From Escherichia coli (GTDB lineage: Bacteria; Pseudomonadota; Gammaproteobacteria; Enterobacterales; Enterobacteriaceae): a stretch of 28,938 nucleotides of DNA. The notes under the pieces were generated by a model. That model was given only the letters and a program-made list of their open reading frames with translations, did no database searches and was not told the origin of the DNA. The stretch lies in the NCBI RefSeq assembly GCF_003334315.1, contig NZ_QOWR01000059.1; one strand, 5' to 3'. The position numbers were made by a program, and so were the translations under genes. Below, in pieces: positions 15,226-26,157 of the stretch (its first letter is position 1; each line of letters opens with the position of its first letter).

Positions 15226-15267
15226 GTCATACCACTCGCCTGATTATTTTTAGCTATGTTGGATTTT

Positions 15268-15294
15268 GCCACGGTTTATACCGTGGCTTTTTTT
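15268..15294 (+). terminator. Rho-independent terminator of allD-allC-allE operon
   Basis: GCCACGG-TTTATA-CCGTGGC followed by TTTTTTT. Confidence 0.75.
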
Positions 15295-15302
15295 GTAACA
15301 TT

Positions 15303-15406
15303 GCCTGATGCGCTTCGCTTATCAGGCCTACATGATCTCTGCAATATATAGAATTTGCGCGATTTTCAGGAAGGATATGGTACTCATGCCGCATCCGGCA
15401 TGAGTA
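15303..15406. repeat. REP-like palindromic elements between convergent allE and glxK
   Basis: GCCTGATGCGCTTCGCTTATCAGGCCTACA (REP-type) at 15303..15332 and palindrome TACTCATGCC-GCATCC-GGCATGAGTA at 15381..15406. Confidence 0.6.
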
Positions 15407-17927: not shown

Positions 17928-17977
17928 ACCTTAACCGGAGAATGCCCGCCGCAAGGACGGGCATTGCAGGGGCCAGA

Positions 17978-19339
17978 TTACTGCTGATGTTTAAGGATAA
18001 ATTGACCTTTCGGCGCAACAGGGAAGCCCTGTTCAATGTCGTAAATCACATCACCACGTAAGATGGTTTTCGTGATACGCGCGCCAATGGTACGGCCAAC
18101 ATACGGGCTGACTTTGTGGCGATATTCCAGATCGTCATTGGTAAGAACATAGCTGCTATTCGGCTGAATGAAGACGAAGTCGGCATCTTTTCCTGGGGCG
18201 ATACGGCCTTTTTGCTGCAGACCGAAAATATCTGCTGCGTTAGTCGCCATTAATTTGCCGAACATTGGCAGAGACATACCGCGTTTCTGTACCGCTTCAT
18301 CGAACATCACGTCCATGCAGCTTTGCAGACCGGCGATACCGCCCCATGCTTTCATGATGTTACCGGCTTTCATTTCCGGCGGGCATGGAGAGTGGTCGGA
18401 AACCAGGCAGTCGATTTCACCGTTAAACAGTTTTTCCCACATGCCTTTCTGGTTTTCCAGATCGCGGATCGGCGGTGAACACTTCGCCAGAGTACCGATT
18501 TCTTCGAACTGATCGGTATCCAGTACAAAGTAATGCGGGCAGGATTCACAAGTAACGTCCTGACCTTCCTGACGTGCACGAGTCACTTCCTCAACACCTT
18601 CCGGGCTGCTGACGTGGCAAACGTGCAGACGGCAACCAGCAACTTTCGCCAGATACAGTACGCGGCGAATTGCTTCCACTTCGGTAAATACCGGACGCGA
18701 AGCCACATAGTCATGAGCGGTTACGCGACCTTCACGCTTCGCTTCTTCGCCCAGTTCGTCACAAATCAGCGCGTTTTCGCAGTGCACCAGCACCGGCTGA
18801 CCCAGTTCGCCCAGCTTCTGCGCACCTTTGAAGAACTGCCAGTCGTTTACATCACGGAAGTCGTTGTCGATACCGCGATCGCCACAGGTCGCAACGAAGC
18901 ATTTGAAGCCGACAACGCCCACTTCATCCAGCTCATGCAGACGGTCGATGTTGTAAGACACCAGGCCACCGAGTTGTGCCGCATCAATAGTCAGCTTGCC
19001 TTTAGCGGCATCGAACTTCAGTTCAATTGAAGCGCGGTCAACCGTTGCAGGCAGCTGGTTGAGCGGCATTTCGATCATGGTGGTGATACCACCTTTTGCC
19101 GCTGCGCGAGTACCGGTTTCATAACCTTCCCAGTGGCTACGACCCGGTTCAGAAATATGGGTGTGCGCATCAACCATGCCCGGCGAAACCACCAGACCAG
19201 ACGCATCCATAACTTCTTTTGCATCGCCCAGATCCTGACCGATAGCAGCAATTTTTCCGCCTTTAACGGCGATATCTACAACGCGAGCTTCGTTTTCTAA
19301 AATAACGGTGCCGTTTTTAATGATTAAATCAAAAGACAT
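17978..19339 (-). CDS. allB: Allantoinase (cyclic amidohydrolase)
   Basis: 453-aa [80 protein letters not shown]... with metal-binding HxH motif. Confidence 0.95.
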
Positions 19340-19398: not shown

Positions 19399-20853
19399 TT
19401 AACCTATGGTTTTTTGCTCTCCTGTTTTTTCTGCTGTTGTACGTTTCTTTAATAAGGCGTAGGCCGCAAAGGCGACGATGACGCCGACAAACCATGAAAC
19501 ACGCGATAACGGTTCCATAAAGTGAATAAACTTACCGCCAAGAGATAAAATAACGGCCACCAGAGTTACTGAAAACGCAGTGAGGTTAAAACCGTTATCG
19601 TAATATTTATAATCGCCAGGTGCGGTATACAGTTCATCAAGATTAATTTGTCCGCGCATCACCACAAAATAATGCGCCATCATGACACCAATTACCGGAC
19701 CAAGCATTCCGCCGATAATATCGAGGAAAAGATAAATGCTGTCCTGATTTTCCATTAATTTTCACGGGCAGATCAGCAAGCTGATAATACTGGCAATCAG
19801 TACGCCGTTTTTATAGGTCAGTTTTGTCGGTGCAATGGCGGCAATCTGATAACCGGCTGGAATAATATTACCGGTCGCGTTAGTGGAGATAGTTGTCATC
19901 AGAATAACCAGTACCGCAAAGAACGAGGCGAACAGGCTGTCCCAACGCTGAACAATATCCAGCACGTTCCAGGTATCAGCGCCGTAGTGAATACTGGCTC
20001 CGGCAATAATACATACCCCGGCGACCGCAAACAGAATATAGGCCACAACTAAACCCAGCGTTTGCCCCAGCGCCTGCTCACGAAACGAGTGGGCGTTTTG
20101 CGTAAAGTCGGATGCGCTCACCGCCGGTGCCGCCCAGACCGCAACTACCGCGTTAATCACCACCAGGAACAGGAAGCCACCGTTTTCTGCTTTCTGAATA
20201 CCGCTCGGAATGTAGTCAAAGATTGGACCGATCCCGATCAGTGAAATCGCCCAAATCGCCATACCGCCGAAAACGATATAGATGCACGGGTTAAGAATGG
20301 CAGTGAATTTATTTAAAACTTTGCCACCGCCAAAACCTATACCAACGTTGACCAGCCAGAAGATTAAGAAAGTAATTAAGCCCGGTAGAGAAAGGCCTAA
20401 CAGAGTGAAATCACCACCGAGAGTTAAAAATCCCGGCCAGATTTTGCCAATCAGAATCAAGCAGGCCAGTGACCCCGCGTAACATTGCAAACCAAACCAC
20501 ATGATGGCGGCAATTCCGCCCCTTAATAATCCGGGAAACAGTGCACCACGTACACCGTAAGAAGCACGCAGGATCATGGCAAAAGGCACACCGTATTTAC
20601 TGCCCGCAGCACCGTTTAATACCATTACCGCGGCAATGAAAAAGGCGCTGAGGATAATTGCCAGCATAATACTAAAGGTAGACAAGCCGAGAATAAAAAA
20701 GCCGCCGACCATCACATAATTGGGAACGTTATGAACCGAACCCATCCATAAGGTAAAATAGTTAAATGTTTTCCAGGTCCGCTGGCTTTGCGTTTTCGGC
20801 AATAGATCTTCGCTATAGCCGCGTTGCTGGAATAGTTTTCTCTGATGTTCCAT
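19399..20853 (-). pseudogene. ybbW: Allantoin permease (NCS1 family) interrupted by an in-frame TGA at codon 364
   Basis: ORFs 19762..20853 (363 aa ...LLICP) and 19399..19755 (118 aa MENQDS...) share a frame. Minus strand reads ...TGA-AAA-TTA-ATG-GAA, so 363 + stop + 2 + 118 = 484 codons, the length I recall for K-12 YbbW/AllP. Confidence 0.75.
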
Positions 20854-20990
20854 AAATCCCTCTTAATTTCACGTATCGAATAACGTTGTTTTAATCTAGC
20901 TATGAGGAACAAATAAAATAAAAATATTATTTTTAATACTGAAGCAACATCTTTGGCTGCTTTCTTTTTTAATATTGCTGGCCGATTCAT
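20712..20990 (-). CDS. ybbV: Hypothetical small protein YbbV (doubtful ORF overlapping ybbW 5' end)
   Basis: 92-aa ORF MNRPAILKKKAAKDVASVLKIIFLFYLFLIARLKQ... in the position of annotated K-12 ybbV; AT-rich, overlaps ybbW by about 140 nt. Confidence 0.3.
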   Translation of the reverse strand: MNRPAILKKKAAKDVASVLKIIFLFYLFLIARLKQRYSIREIKRDLWNIRENYSSNAAIAKIYCRKRKASGPGKHLTILPYGWVRFITFPIM

Positions 20991-21021
20991 TTTCTGATAT
21001 CGGCCATTTTTATTGCGGGTA

Positions 21022-21900
21022 TCAGGCCAGTTTATGGTTAGCCATTAATTCCAGCGCCTGCACTAACGCAGAGTGATCCAACTGGCTGCCACCGTTTGCC
21101 GCACAGGTATTAAATAACTCCTGGCAGGTCGCAGTGTTTGGCAGGTTCAGCGCAAGTGCTTTCGCACTTTGCAGTGCCAGGTTGAGATCTTTCTGGTGCA
21201 GAGCGATTTTGAAGCCCGGATTAAAGGTGCGTTTAATCATACGCTCGCCATGAACTTCCAGAATACGTGAGGAAGCAAAGCCGCCCATCAGCGCCTGGCG
21301 CACACGTACCGGGTCCGCACCAGCTTTTGAAGCAAATAGCAGGGCTTCAGAAACCGCTTCAATATTGAGCGCCACGATAATCTGATTTGCCACTTTGCAG
21401 GTTTGACCATCGCCGTTACCGCCCACGAGGGTGATATTTTTACCGAGCAGTTCAAACAGCGGTTTAACACGTTCAAATACCGCTTCATCACCGCCAACCA
21501 TAATCGACAACGTCCCTTCACGCGCACCGATTTCACCGCCGGAGACTGGCGCATCGAGATAATCGCCGCCCAGTTCATTCACCTGACGAGCGAAACGCTT
21601 AGTTTCAATCGGGGAAATGGAGCTCATATCAACAATGGTTTTGCCCTTCAGCGAGGCTTTGGTACAACCATTTTCACCGAACAGAACTTCTTCAACCTGA
21701 GGTGTGTCCGGCACCATAATAAAAATGATGTCCGATGCTTCCGTTACCTGGCGAGCAGTTTCAACACTGACGGCACCCAGTGACAGTAATTCATCAGCAA
21801 CCGGTCCAATGGTCGTGACATGTAATTGATGACCGGCACGCGCCAGATTAATGGCCATCGGTGTACCCATAATGCCTAAGCCAATAAATCCCAGTTTCAT
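21022..21900 (-). CDS. glxR: Tartronate semialdehyde reductase (2-hydroxy-3-oxopropionate reductase)
   Basis: 292-aa ORF MKLGFIGLGIMGTPMAINLARAGHQLHVTT... NAD-binding GxGxxG of the 3-hydroxyisobutyrate dehydrogenase family. Confidence 0.93.
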   Translation of the reverse strand: MKLGFIGLGIMGTPMAINLARAGHQLHVTTIGPVADELLSLGAVSVETARQVTEASDIIFIMVPDTPQVEEVLFGENGCTKASLKGKTIVDMSSISPIETKRFARQVNELGGDYLDAPVSGGEIGAREGTLSIMVGGDEAVFERVKPLFELLGKNITLVGGNGDGQTCKVANQIIVALNIEAVSEALLFASKAGADPVRVRQALMGGFASSRILEVHGERMIKRTFNPGFKIALHQKDLNLALQSAKALALNLPNTATCQELFNTCAANGGSQLDHSALVQALELMANHKLA

Positions 21901-21999: not shown

Positions 22000-22776
22000 T
22001 TAACGGTACGGATCCATCCAGCGTAAACCGGCTTCCGTGGTGGTTTGGGGTTTATATTCACACCCAACCCAACCGTTGTAGTCAGAATTTTCGATTACCT
22101 TAAAGAGATAATCATAATTAATTTCTCCGGTTCCCGGTTCGCCGCGATGCGGATTATCGGCAATTTGCAGGTGACCAATTTTATCAGCCCACTGAGTCAT
22201 GGTGTTGGTTAATTCACCTTCCATCCGCTGCATATGATAAATGTCATACTGAATTTTCAAATTGCAGCAACCAACATCATCAATCAATTTCAGCGCCTGC
22301 CGAGTTCCGGTGAGATGGAAACCAGGAATATCAAAATGGTTAATAGGTTCAATCAGTAATAAAATATCTTCTTTCATCAGCATATTCGCGGCATAACGCA
22401 GGTTTTCTACAAGCGTTGCGTGAATCTGTTCACTGCTGAAACCAGCCGGCGTTTTACCGACCAGACAGTTAATTTTTTTATTACCCAGCGCACGGGCATA
22501 ACGAATCGCTGCTGCTACGCCATCCCGAAACTCTTCTTCACGGCCAGGAATACAGGCAATACCGCGCTCCCCCGCCGCCCAGTCACCCGCCGGTAAATTG
22601 TGCAGCGTATGTTCGAGTTTATTACTCGCCAGCACATGTTTTAATTCTTCAATGTCGTAGTCATAAGGAAACATAAATTCAACGCCGCGAAAACCACACT
22701 GCGCAGCTTTCTCAAAACGGGCGAGAAAATCATATTCTCCAAATAACATCGATAAATTAGCAGAGAAACGTAACAT
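22000..22776 (-). CDS. hyi: Hydroxypyruvate isomerase
   Basis: 258-aa ORF MLRFSANLSMLFGEYDFLARFEKAAQCGFRGVEF... (xylose-isomerase-like TIM barrel). Confidence 0.93.
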   Translation of the reverse strand: MLRFSANLSMLFGEYDFLARFEKAAQCGFRGVEFMFPYDYDIEELKHVLASNKLEHTLHNLPAGDWAAGERGIACIPGREEEFRDGVAAAIRYARALGNKKINCLVGKTPAGFSSEQIHATLVENLRYAANMLMKEDILLLIEPINHFDIPGFHLTGTRQALKLIDDVGCCNLKIQYDIYHMQRMEGELTNTMTQWADKIGHLQIADNPHRGEPGTGEINYDYLFKVIENSDYNGWVGCEYKPQTTTEAGLRWMDPYR

Positions 22777-22788
22777 TATTTATCTCCC

Positions 22789-24570
22789 TTATTCATAGTG
22801 CATGAAGCAGGTTTCAGTCGGTGCGTCCGCTGCGTTATCGGCGATATCTTCAAATTCCATGACGTTATCCAGTTCGCTGCCCATCGAAATATTGGTCACA
22901 CGCTCGAGAATAACTTCCACGACTACCGGTACCCGATATTGCGCCATTAAGGCTTTCGCCTGTTCAAAGGCTGGCGCAATATCTTCCGGTTTGAAGACGC
23001 GAATAGCTTTACAACCTAAACCTTCCGCTACTTTTACGTGGTCAACACCGTAGCCATTCACTTCACTGGAGTTGATATTCTCGAAAGCGAGTTGCACGCA
23101 GTAGTCCATGTCAAAAGCGCGTTGTGACTGACGAATCAGCCCCAGATAAGCGTTGTTGACCAGCACATGGATGTACGGAATGTTGAACTGCGCGCCAACA
23201 GCTAACTCTTCAATCAGGAACTGGAAGTCAAAGTCGCCAGAAATCGCCACCACATTGCGTTTCGGATCAGCGGCACAAACCCCTAGCGCAGCCGGAATCG
23301 TCCAGCCTAACGGACCAGCCTGACCACAGTTGATCCAGTGGCGGTCTTTAAAGACATGCAGCATTTGTGCCGCAGCGATTTGTGACAGACCAATGGTGGT
23401 GACATAACAAACATCGCGACCAAAGGCTTTGTTCATCTCTTCATACACGCGCTGCGGTTTCACCGGCACGTTGTCGAAGTGGGTTTTGCGCAGCAAAGTG
23501 CGTTTACGCTGCTGGCAGTCGGCGACCCATTCTTTACGACACGGCAGACGACCCGCTTTTTGCATCTCCTGCGCCACTTCAACCAGCAGTGTCAGCGCCG
23601 CTTTAGCATCAGAGACAATACCGAGATCCGGACACAGCACGCGACCAATTTGCGTCGGCTCAATATCAATATGAACGATTTTGCGCCCTTCGGTGTATTT
23701 CTCTACCGAGCCGGTATGACGGTTAGCAAAACGGTTACCGATACCAAACACCATGTCAGACGCCAGCAGCGTTGCGTTACCGTAACGATGCGCGGTTTGC
23801 AGACCCACCATCCCGGCCATCAGTTCATGATCGTCCGGGATACAGCCCCAGCCCATTAGCGTTGGGATCACCGGAACGCTGGTCAGTTCAGCAAACTGTT
23901 GTAACAGTGCAGCTGCGTCAGCATTAATTACCCCGCCCCCGGCAACAATCACCGGACGTTCGGCCTGGATTAACATTTCTACAGCTTTTTCGATCTGCAT
24001 ACGGCTGGCAGCAGGTTTGTAGACCGGCAGCGGTTCGTACATGTCAGGATCAAACTCGATTTCCGCAACCTGAACGTCGAACGGTAAATCCACCAGTACC
24101 GGACCCGGACGACCAGAACGCATCAGGTGAAATGCCTGTTGCAGCACGCGAGGCACCAGCGCCGCTTCACGAACTGTAACCGCCATTTTGCTGACCGGTT
24201 TAGCAATTGCTTCAATATCTACGGCCTGAAAATCTTCTTTATGCAGACGGGCGCGCGGTGCCTGGCCGGTAATGCACAGAATAGGAATGGAATCAGCAGA
24301 AGCGGAATAGAGCGCGGTGATCATGTCCGTGCCCGCAGGACCGGAAGTCCCCAGACATACGCCGATATTCCCTGCCGTTGCGCGGGTATAACCTTCCGCC
24401 ATGTGCGAAGCACCTTCCACATGACGCGCCAGAATGTGACGAATACCGCCGTGCTTACGCATCGCTGAGTAGAACGGATTGATTGCAGCTCCCGGAACAC
24501 CGAAGGCGGTAGTGATACCTTCTTTCTCCAGCACATACATTGCCGCGTCAACGGCTCTCATTTTTGCCAT
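22789..24570 (-). CDS. gcl: Glyoxylate carboligase (tartronate-semialdehyde synthase, ThDP-dependent)
   Basis: Start at ATG 24568..24570 ([34 protein letters not shown]...), 593 aa; the ORF-track start at 24660 is 30 codons upstream in the promoter. Confidence 0.95.
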
Positions 24571-24590
24571 TTTATTCCTACCTCTATTTA

Positions 24591-24607
24591 TTGGAAAATT
24601 TTTCCAA
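24591..24607. promoter_or_regulatory. AllR operator in the gcl promoter
   Basis: Palindrome TTGGAAAATTTTTCCAA about 20 nt upstream of the gcl start; matches the AllR box as I recall it. Confidence 0.7.
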
Positions 24608-24620
24608 CTTTCAAATTTTG

Positions 24621-24647
24621 TCAAAAAAACCCGCTCCGCAGAGCGGG
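24621..24647 (-). terminator. Rho-independent terminator of allR
   Basis: On minus strand: CCCGCTC-TGCG-GAGCGGG followed by TTTTTTT, about 12 nt after the allR stop. Confidence 0.75.
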
Positions 24648-24659
24648 ATGCGACAGACA

Positions 24660-25475
24660 TTATGGATGTGCTTTCAGTCCCAACGCCGTGCTGATATCGC
24701 GGGCGGTGTCTCTGACCAGCTCACCCTGACTGACAAAACGATCTTCTGTCAGTCTTGATGAAGGCCCGGAGATGGAGATAGCGGCAACAACACTACCGAC
24801 ATCATCGTAAATTGCTGAAGCTATGCAATTCAGACCTACAACATGCTCTTCTTTATCTACGGTATAGCCCAGTTCACGCGCTTGTTCCAGGTCCTTCAGC
24901 AAGGTGGGCATATCCACAAGCGTAGTTGGCGTAAACTGCTGCAAACCGGTTTGCAGAATGATGCTCATCAACTCCTCTTCCGCCAGCGGATAAAGCAGCG
25001 CTTTGCCCGCACCGGAAGCATGCAGTGGCAGACGACTGCCCAGTGGCGCACACATCCTGACCATCGATTTACACTCTAACTGACCAATTAATACCGCTTC
25101 ATTGCCGTTACGGATCGCGACATTGACCGTTTCGCCGGAAAGTAACATCAGGCGGCGCATAAACGGCCCGGCGACGGAGAGGACATCGCGGTTATGGATG
25201 TACGCCGCACCGACGTTAAAGACACCTAATCCTATATGCCACCAGCCTAATTGACTGTCCTGATAGACAAAATCCGCTGCCTGTAAAACCTTCAGCAAGC
25301 GAAAGGTCGTGGAGAGCGGCAAATCCAGATTGAGAGAAATATCGCTAACCGACGAACTTCCCCCACTTTTTTCCAAATATTGCAGAATCGCAATTCCCCG
25401 CTCTAACGCCTGTGCGCCCTTCTGTGCCACAGGCTCCGCCTGTCCTGGCCTGCCGCGCCGTCTAACTTCCGTCAT
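24660..25475 (-). CDS. allR: IclR-family repressor of allantoin/glyoxylate genes
   Basis: 271-aa [67 protein letters not shown]... (IclR HTH plus effector domain). Confidence 0.95.
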
Positions 25476-26140: not shown

Positions 26141-26157
26141 TTGGAATATTTTTCCAA
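26141..26157. promoter_or_regulatory. AllR operator in the allA/allS divergent intergenic region
   Basis: TTGGAATATTTTTCCAA, one mismatch from the gcl-promoter palindrome, located between divergent allA and allS. Confidence 0.65.

Follow-up and report, generated by a model that had tools for sequence, protein, structure and literature searches.

A short stem-loop separates glxR from allW (formerly ybbW) in Escherichia coli. It lies in an AT-rich island between two genes transcribed from the minus strand, is oriented as a terminator of the opposite strand, and encloses the start of a doubtful reading frame, ybbV. The question raised by this locus is what such a structure does there; a preliminary description had offered an antisense terminator, an internal regulatory structure of the gcl operon transcript, or a relic. 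The stretch of DNA analyzed here (the window, 28,938 nucleotides) represents the allantoin/glyoxylate cluster of E. coli, encoded on the minus strand, and gcl-glxK is treated as a single operon in recent literature (PMC10163214, PMC12535856). Features of the locus are listed in Table 1. The spacer between glxR and allW has a GC content of 30% compared with 52% for the window, which bears out its description as an AT-rich island, and PGAP called no feature within it. The 451 bp around the spacer were found in 5336 of 5426 complete E. coli genomes, with 100% identity to many chromosomes. The spacer is non-coding and composite, consisting of the stem-loop, the stub of an MFS gene, and an AT-rich tract with the allW leader; each of the three proposals proved partly right, for one portion of it or another. 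It is an ordinary operon spacer with a phantom open reading frame that can be explained, and our findings leave the general understanding of bacterial gene expression unchanged.

Table 1. Positions in the window of the features at and around the glxR-allW spacer.
Feature	Position	Strand	Basis or remark
gcl	22789-24660	-	ORF list, RefSeq annotation
hyi	22000-22776	-	ORF list, RefSeq annotation
glxR	21022-21900	-	ORF list, RefSeq annotation of identical sequence
glxR stop codon, TGA	21022-21024	-	ORF list, RefSeq annotation of identical sequence
glxR-allW spacer, 168 bp	20854-21021		between two minus-strand genes
T5AT2 tract, TTTTTATT	21007-21014	+ only	directly 3' of the stem on the plus strand
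Stem-loop, arms TGGCCGAT (20979-20986) and ATCGGCCA (20999-21006)	20979-21006		8-bp perfect pairs plus 3 inner pairs
ybbV ORF, 92 codons, ATG at 20988-20990	20712-20990	-	ORF list; interpreted as a chance ORF
MFS gene fossil: last ~12 codons, stop and first downstream bases	20926-20974	-	local alignment
A6 run, A6/A7 polymorphic within E. coli	20965-20970	-	alignment; the A7 allele puts ybbV out of frame
AT-rich tract homologous to the MFS-allW spacer of other genera	20913-20936	-	sequence alignment
allW leader, ~60 nt: box A, box B, Shine-Dalgarno	20854-20912	-
Box A, TTGTTCCTCATAGCTAGAT, consensus TTGTTCCnCATAGCTAAAC	20894-20912	-	cross-genus conservation
Box B, ACGTTATTCGATACGTG, consensus ACGTwATyCGATrCGTG	20870-20886	-	one copy in the 28.9-kb cluster
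allW Shine-Dalgarno AAGAGGGA (20857-20864) and ATG (20851-20853)	20851-20864	-
allW (formerly ybbW)	19399-20853	-	ORF list, RefSeq annotation
allB	17978-19339	-	ORF list, RefSeq annotation
Second hairpin without U-tract, directly after allB	about 17945-17967

The inverted repeat had been reported as GGCCGAT-N12-ATCGGCC at 20980-21005. Sequence reading and a repeat finder both confirmed these arms (20980-20986 and 20999-21005), and each arm extends to 8 bp. Twelve nucleotides separate the 8-bp arms, and with three further pairs formed inside them the loop is 5 nt long; the structure lies 15 nt downstream of the glxR stop codon. Five of the eight outer pairs are G-C, with a stability of -14.6 to -16 kcal/mol. 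Folding of 61 nt of the operon strand gave -16.0 kcal/mol (z = -4.6, none of 200 shuffles being equally stable) and folding of 61 nt of the plus strand gave -15.6 kcal/mol (z = -3.15). A simple terminator scan with a loop limit of 8 nt left this hairpin uncalled, only because its nominal loop is longer than that. The minus-strand RNA of the window has equally stable hairpins at 20 loci over 28.9 kb, or one in about every 1.45 kb, so that the chance of meeting such a hairpin no more than 60 nt from any particular stop codon is roughly 4%. The stem-loop by itself is unremarkable, and its position is what stands out.

The flanks of the stem give it a polarity. On the operon strand the T5AT2 tract reads AAUAAAAA(U) and lies immediately 5' of the stem; the stem is flanked by AAUAAAAAU before and GCAAUAUUAAAAAAG after, there is no U-tract, and none of the first five bases 3' of the stem is a U. 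Since the stem is followed by TTTTTATT on the plus strand and by GCAAUAUUAAAAAAG on the operon strand, the terminator-like polarity is antisense to both glxR and allW, as had been described. When the features of an intrinsic terminator were looked for in the sense direction, the GC-rich stem-loop was present and the U-rich tract 3' of it was absent, so that the hairpin qualifies neither as a sense nor as a bidirectional terminator; on the plus strand a GC-rich stem-loop is followed by a U-rich tract.

The interpretation we favour, with moderate confidence and as somewhat better than an even proposition, is that the hairpin is read through on the operon strand, protects the gcl-hyi-glxR message from 3' exonucleases, and terminates antisense transcription coming from the allW leader. 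The stem-loop would then be an RNA structure between two cistrons of the gcl-hyi-glxR-allW-allB-ybbY-glxK operon. As the operon strand carries no U-tract, RNA polymerase is expected to read through and the operon to be continuous. In the mRNA, the stem-loop would most likely act as a barrier to 3'-to-5' exonucleases, and once the AU-rich spacer is cut, the distal segment would decay sooner than gcl-hyi-glxR. Because an A-tract precedes the stem, the opposite strand presents a stem followed by U5AU2, the canonical layout of an intrinsic terminator, which would halt antisense transcription from the AT-rich allW leader before it reached glxR. The anatomy of the locus, the recurring position of the hairpin, the scar of a deletion and the lack of conservation of ybbV are observations; read-through, stabilization and antisense termination are inferred.

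Stem-loops of this kind have precedents: the REP hairpins of malE-malF and the hairpins of the puf and pap operons protect upstream cistrons from 3' exonucleases. The glxR stem-loop shares with these intercistronic stabilizers a GC-rich stem-loop past a stop codon within a polycistron, the absence of a U-tract on the mRNA strand and AU-rich single-stranded RNA downstream. A second hairpin without a U-tract directly follows allB, which would make non-terminating intercistronic stem-loops a feature of the gcl operon. It differs from REP hairpins in being single-copy and not a REP sequence: a 65-nt query found a median of one place per genome and one match in the window, with no indication of a REP, a BIME or another dispersed repeat. 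A scan of the spacer against Rfam at E <= 10 retrieved only sub-threshold chance matches (pan, RalA), and a scan of the whole window at gathering thresholds retrieved nothing at the spacer. If the proposed role is correct, the stem-loops after glxR and allB may set the ratio of the glyoxylate-branch enzymes to the proteins of allantoin uptake and hydrolysis.

Evidence comes from other genomes. In 18-19 of 21 loci a strong hairpin, with energies of -12 to -22 kcal/mol, starts within about 0-26 nt past the glxR stop codon, and one is also present in Salmonella, Enterobacter and L091 loci that were added later. Across about 12 genera these hairpins are built from at least 10 unrelated stem sequences, the 5' arms being GGCCGAU in Escherichia, CCCGCCG in Superficieibacter, Citrobacter 18056 and Enterobacter, CGCCACAUC in RIT691, GCACUGCGC in Buttiauxella, GGAUGGC in Atlantibacter, GUAUCGCUGCA in Salmonella and Citrobacter, GCUGCCGG in Klebsiella and Raoultella, GUUGCAGGC in Serratia, GGCUGGCA in Rahnella and CUGGCGCUGAUAA in Budvicia. 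In genomes where an MFS gene is inserted between glxR and allW, the hairpin remains beside glxR and not beside allW. The same position combined with a complete turnover of sequence points to a structural role, at the level of RNA or of transcription, and not to a protein-binding sequence. Judged from these comparisons, the stem-loop at the post-glxR position appears to be under selection. The suggestion that it is an internal structure of the gcl operon transcript gains support from this positional conservation across genera, and the hairpin after allB fits.

Within the genus, the hairpin is invariant among seven diverse E. coli strains. No compensatory double changes were found in the stem within Escherichia, and the T5AT2 tract is kept in E. 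coli, strain E69 and E. whittamii.

That the spacer has a history of its own became evident from the gene order of related bacteria. Salmonella, Klebsiella and Raoultella, and likewise Citrobacter FP75 and C. werkmanii, carry a gene for an MFS transporter of ~415-440 aa between glxR and allW, on the same strand. In E. coli, positions 20926-20974 are colinear with the 3' end of this gene (alignment score 61, compared with 23.6 +/- 3.4 and a maximum of 36 for shuffles), so that colinear homology, a syntenic place and the order glxR, remnant, allW leader all identify a gene remnant. An intact MFS gene in the relatives and a colinear stub in E. coli indicate that Escherichia deleted ~1.25 kb of the gene. 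The proposal that the island is a relic therefore holds in the middle of the spacer, where the deleted MFS gene has left its 3' stub; it does not extend to the hairpin itself.

Could the hairpin nevertheless be a neutral by-product, either left behind by the rearrangement in which the MFS gene was lost or descended from a terminator that has decayed? The deletion scar is demonstrably in the spacer, the frequency of equally stable hairpins in the window is in line with this reading, and the hairpin sequence is specific to Escherichia, its similarity to the glxR-MFS region of Salmonella and Citrobacter being at chance level (23 compared with 21 +/- 2.9). Diversity within E. coli is moreover too low for the invariance of 28 nt to mean much. 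However, a post-glxR hairpin in nearly every genus, each time with a different sequence, is hard to explain without selection; where E69 and E. whittamii differ, the substitutions are in the loop and the flanks, with six GC-rich pairs intact; and an insertion of 33 nt has even given E69 a second hairpin. We regard a neutral origin as possible, if unlikely.

Further evidence bearing on the favoured reading, that of a read-through stabilizer with an antisense terminator on its reverse, came from the orientation of the tails. T-tracts were scored on either side of each core stem; d-scores were computed with ViennaRNA energies, and only the relative T-tract values are trustworthy. In E. coli, the sense tail GCAAUAUU scored 0.14 and the antisense tail UUUUUAUU (21007-21014) scored 2.59, a value that holds for the stem cut back to its outermost G-C pair and is expected to be higher when the outer U-A pair is counted as stem. 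The E. coli d-scores, computed with the G-C-trimmed stem, were negative on both strands. Genomes in which allW directly follows glxR represent five independent stem families (Escherichia, the CCCGCCG family, RIT691, Buttiauxella and Atlantibacter), and in every one of these the antisense tract was richer than the sense tract. Where an MFS gene follows glxR, the sense tract was equal or richer in four of five genomes, the exception being K. spallanzanii with a slightly lower sense score (1.73 compared with 2.46); this contrast in orientation rests on only ~7 independent stem families. The post-glxR hairpins of Rahnella and Serratia have sense-oriented tails. The pattern suggests that the hairpin must not stop transcription of the operon, yet stops transcription returning from the allW leader. 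The A-richness upstream of the stem in several genera is partly due to tandem TAA stop codons.

The idea of an antisense terminator thus stands as regards anatomy, with a GC-rich stem, U5AU2 on the plus strand only, and an orientation bias in five unrelated families; an antisense transcript or promoter to go with it was not found. There is no plus-strand gene upstream of the hairpin, and a simple promoter scan of both strands of the spacer found none. In a -35/-10 PWM scan of the spacer the best scores, 8.0 for the sense strand and 9.8-9.9 for the antisense strand, did not rise above shuffles (mean 8.9, 95th percentile 12.2). The Term-seq supplement of Adams (2021) has no glxR/allW entry and TERMITe lists nothing at the site, probably because the operon was repressed in those media. 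Cappable-seq has no coordinates matching the spacer, SMRT-Cappable-seq shows only an allR-gcl-hyi transcript at the locus, and a literature search for glxR/ybbW terminators or ChIP returned nothing relevant. One preprint describes bacterial promoters as frequently bidirectional (bioRxiv 10.1101/2020.01.31.928960). A role as a backstop for read-through from allDCE was also considered and rejected by reasoning, since over 5 kb of antisense RNA, untranslated, would lie between allDCE and the hairpin.

Compared with known intrinsic terminators, including bidirectional ones, the plus strand has the familiar 8+3 bp GC-rich stem and U5AU2, in the layout A-tract, hairpin, tail; it differs from them in that no plus-strand gene or mapped plus-strand transcript ends at the hairpin. 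Bidirectional terminators, which Ju et al. reportedly described in 2019 by SEnd-seq, combine an A-tract on the 5' side with a U-tract on the 3' side of a hairpin and typically separate convergent genes, whereas here the A-tract has no U-tract on the sense strand to match it and the genes are co-directional.

The converse arrangement would be a leaky sense attenuator at the end of a gcl-hyi-glxR sub-operon, with allW-allB-ybbY-glxK transcribed mainly from a promoter of their own in the AT-rich leader. The post-glxR hairpins of Klebsiella, Raoultella, Rahnella, Serratia and Citrobacter FP75 do have U-rich 3' tails, the allW leader is conserved and moves with allW, and -10-like hexamers end 55-61 nt before the allW ATG in six genera. 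Against this stand the E. coli sense tail, with its low T-tract score and no U in the first five bases past the stem, and the promoter scores of the spacer, which are not above shuffles. Cusa et al. are said to have found, in 1999, only three promoters for the structural genes, which also counts against an attenuator. The treatment of gcl-glxK as one operon in the literature is a further objection (PMC10163214, PMC12535856). A microarray time course of E. coli O157 Sakai speaks on both sides: induction exceeded 4-fold for gcl, hyi (gip), glxR (ybbQ) and the ybbV probe, and ybbW and allB are absent from the same >4-fold table (PMC2241611). The missing distal genes would suit an attenuator, and they are also the one hint at an upstream segment that is more stable or abundant, as a stabilizer would make it; the ybbV probe, located downstream of the hairpin and co-induced with glxR, would not. 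This co-induction is consistent with the spacer being transcribed together with the proximal genes, with the reservation that the probe may read either strand. On balance we consider a sense attenuator unlikely.

If any part of the spacer has a potential for novelty, it is the allW leader, which is unannotated. It travels with allW whatever the upstream gene, and not with glxR, and its conservation across genera is as strong as that of coding sequence. Box A is kept in Escherichia, Salmonella, Citrobacter, Klebsiella, Raoultella, Enterobacter, Superficieibacter, RIT691 and Izhakiella, and in L091 a box A-like sequence also precedes an M20 peptidase gene. There is no second copy of box A in the E. 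coli cluster. As a regulon motif box A was rejected on that ground; a near-match at 15248, inside the STnc480 region, looks like chance. RNAalifold and single-sequence folding of leaders from six genera predicted the same topology, in which UGUUCC pairs with GGAACA (codons 1-3) and encloses the ribosome-binding site, with a 4-bp ACGU/ACGU stem and one covarying pair (G-C to U-A in four sequences). The consensus energy was -7.4 kcal/mol and the z-scores of -0.8 to -1.8 were not better than shuffles; the predicted RNA structure of the leader is not established. The leader might regulate the allantoin permease gene in cis as an element not yet described, conserved across Enterobacteriaceae and acting either as a translational leader through UGUUCC/GGAACA or as the operator and promoter of an unrecognized allW-allB sub-operon, a proposal that we regard as speculative and quite unlikely. 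Were it correct, the glxR hairpin would be an upstream insulator facing the antisense direction.

The palindrome TGGCCGAT-N12-ATCGGCCA could also be a DNA operator for a dimeric transcription factor controlling allW, given its perfect dyad symmetry and its position upstream of that gene. This is very improbable, as outside Escherichia the structure is kept and the sequence is not, the palindrome has no second copy in the cluster or in the genome, and, located 125 bp before the start of allW, it keeps to glxR and not to allW where an MFS gene is present. The spacer also contains neither an AllR box (TTGGAAAAAnnTTCCAA), which within the window occurs only at 24591-24607 and 26141-26157, nor a RutR box (TTGACCAnnTGGTCAA), for which only chance-level matches were found elsewhere.

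There remains ybbV, which the preliminary description had called doubtful, noting its overlap with the 5' end of ybbW and its odd, lysine-rich composition. Both features proved correct: the frame overlaps allW by 142 nt in a different frame and is rich in lysine and arginine. Its ATG sits in the loop of the hairpin, and the ybbV residues ILKKKAAKDVASV match, in the same frame, the C-terminus LYKKKATQRIASA* of the Salmonella MFS protein. The lysine-rich N-terminus is thus explained by its running in the former MFS frame, and since the MFS stop codon TAA has become TTA in E. coli, the ybbV frame runs on by chance. In the papers naming ybbV that were consulted, no statement was found that its lysine-rich N-terminus derives from a remnant.

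Conservation of the frame was the obvious check, and the frame is not conserved. Differences in the spacer among the seven diverse E. coli strains are mainly in the length of the A6/A7 run. An exact 65-mer with A6 occurs in 3001 of the 5426 E. coli genomes and an exact 66-mer with A7 in 1684, which puts the share of complete E. coli genomes with a frameshifted ybbV at 31% or more. In the A7 strains, in E69 and in E. whittamii the frame either is closed upstream or has no start, and likewise in Salmonella, Citrobacter, Klebsiella, Raoultella, Enterobacter, Superficieibacter, RIT691 and Izhakiella; apart from E69 and E. whittamii, it was closed in all 12 of the other loci examined. A search of 5.8 billion proteins retrieved nine matches, all from Escherichia or Shigella and several of them frameshift chimeras with the permease, and no Pfam domain was found in these matches except in the artefactual permease fusions. 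In the K-12 MG1655 record NC_000913.3 the locus tags pass from b0509 (glxR) to b0511 (allW), the once annotated b0510 (ybbV) being absent. On these comparisons, ybbV is a chance reading frame that begins in the hairpin loop, passes through the MFS stub in its former frame and then the leader, and ends out of frame within allW, and it resembles other retired phantom ORFs of K-12 and gene-remnant pseudogenes in having been dropped from the annotation, in its unconserved frame and in its partial origin from the MFS stub.

That ybbV is instead a real small basic protein whose translation is regulated by the hairpin around its start codon is hardly credible: it is a 92-codon ATG frame in K-12-like strains, was formerly annotated, and its microarray probe was induced along with the operon (PMC2241611), but it is frameshifted or closed in the genomes listed above, has only the few and partly artefactual protein matches, has no Shine-Dalgarno sequence ahead of its start codon, no longer stands in RefSeq K-12 and goes uncalled in PGAP genomes, and its N-terminal third is the fossil C-terminus of another gene and its last 47 codons are out-of-frame allW. 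The locus tag b0510 can stay retired, its odd composition being the fossil tail of an MFS transporter.

The leader of allW, the allantoin permease gene, comprises box A, box B and the Shine-Dalgarno sequence; it carries no annotation and is kept in at least nine genera. Comparison across genera showed that this leader travels with allW and not with glxR. An outer helix, UGUUCC/GGAACA, could possibly form around the ribosome-binding site within it, with weak thermodynamic and covariation support for the predicted pairing. In one enterobacterial comparison locus, L091, where a gene for an M20 peptidase has been inserted 3' of glxR, a box A-like sequence, TTCCGAATAGCTAAGT, lies upstream of that gene, and the canonical box A is also found before allW. 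The copy preceding the peptidase gene is a hint that more than one gene could share box A as a DNA motif.

The gap between glxR and allW is occupied by an MFS transporter gene in Salmonella, Citrobacter, Klebsiella and Raoultella. This gene has been lost in Escherichia, and only its last ~12 codons remain in E. coli. E. coli strain E69, which stands in GTDB as the representative of a species of its own, has a 33-nt insertion directly 3' of the glxR stop, which brings a second hairpin (GGCATCG...CGATGCC) ahead of the usual post-glxR hairpin. Elsewhere in the operon, another GC-rich hairpin, AUGCCCGUCCUUGCGGCGGGCAU, directly follows the allB stop; it is without a U-tract on the operon strand and scores in the plus-strand scan too.

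Segmentation of the gcl operon may also occur upstream of glxR. Adams et al. (2021) list in their supplement an RNA 3' end located ~34 nt into hyi, which they class as primary with respect to gcl and as internal with respect to hyi, and an allR-gcl-hyi transcript has been reported by SMRT-Cappable-seq. In the convergent glxK-allE spacer, gathering-level Rfam matches were obtained for the sRNAs STnc480 and ES036 (CssrF), both adjoining REP-like sequences. The AllR operators at the gcl promoter (TTGGAAAAAtTTTCCAA) and at allS-allA (TTGGAAAAAtATTCCAA) served as control, and the window held no other matches.

Compared with MG1655, the allW coding sequence of the window has one V-to-I change and a G>A substitution at nt 1092, which turns TGG into TGA and creates the in-frame stop W364*; the window thus encodes a truncated allantoin permease. 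The exact 67-nt allele with this stop was found in 0 of 5426 complete E. coli genomes, so that it is either a private mutation or else a sequencing error.

Several Listeria species encode an AllW homologue with 77–78% identity to the E. coli protein, nearer to it than the homologues of Providencia or Photobacterium, which suggests horizontal transfer. A contig labelled Chryseobacterium sp. 18061 (L012) was nearly identical, in the spacer shown, to that of Citrobacter sp. 18056 (L013) from the same study, and likely represents a contaminated or mislabelled assembly.

Coordinates of features in the window and in comparison loci
Feature	Position	Strand
allW leader	window 20854-20912	-
Box A-like and box A sites in L091	L091:326-341; L091:2948-2963	
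MFS transporter gene remnant	window 20926-20974	-
MFS transporter gene in relatives	L088:1658-2905; L010:1081-2403; L014:1111-2412	
Insertion in E69	L008:2304-2336	
Post-allB hairpin	window about 17945-17967	-
RNA 3' end in hyi	window about 22742 (MG1655 535744 +)	-
STnc480 match	window 15232-15298	-
ES036 (CssrF) match	window 15324-15366	-
AllR operator TTGGAAAAAtTTTCCAA	window 24591-24607	
AllR operator TTGGAAAAAtATTCCAA	window 26141-26157	
allW W364*	window 19762-19764	-
AllW homologues of L. newyorkensis, L. booriae, L. grandensis, L. rustica, L. portnoyi	L028, L030-L033
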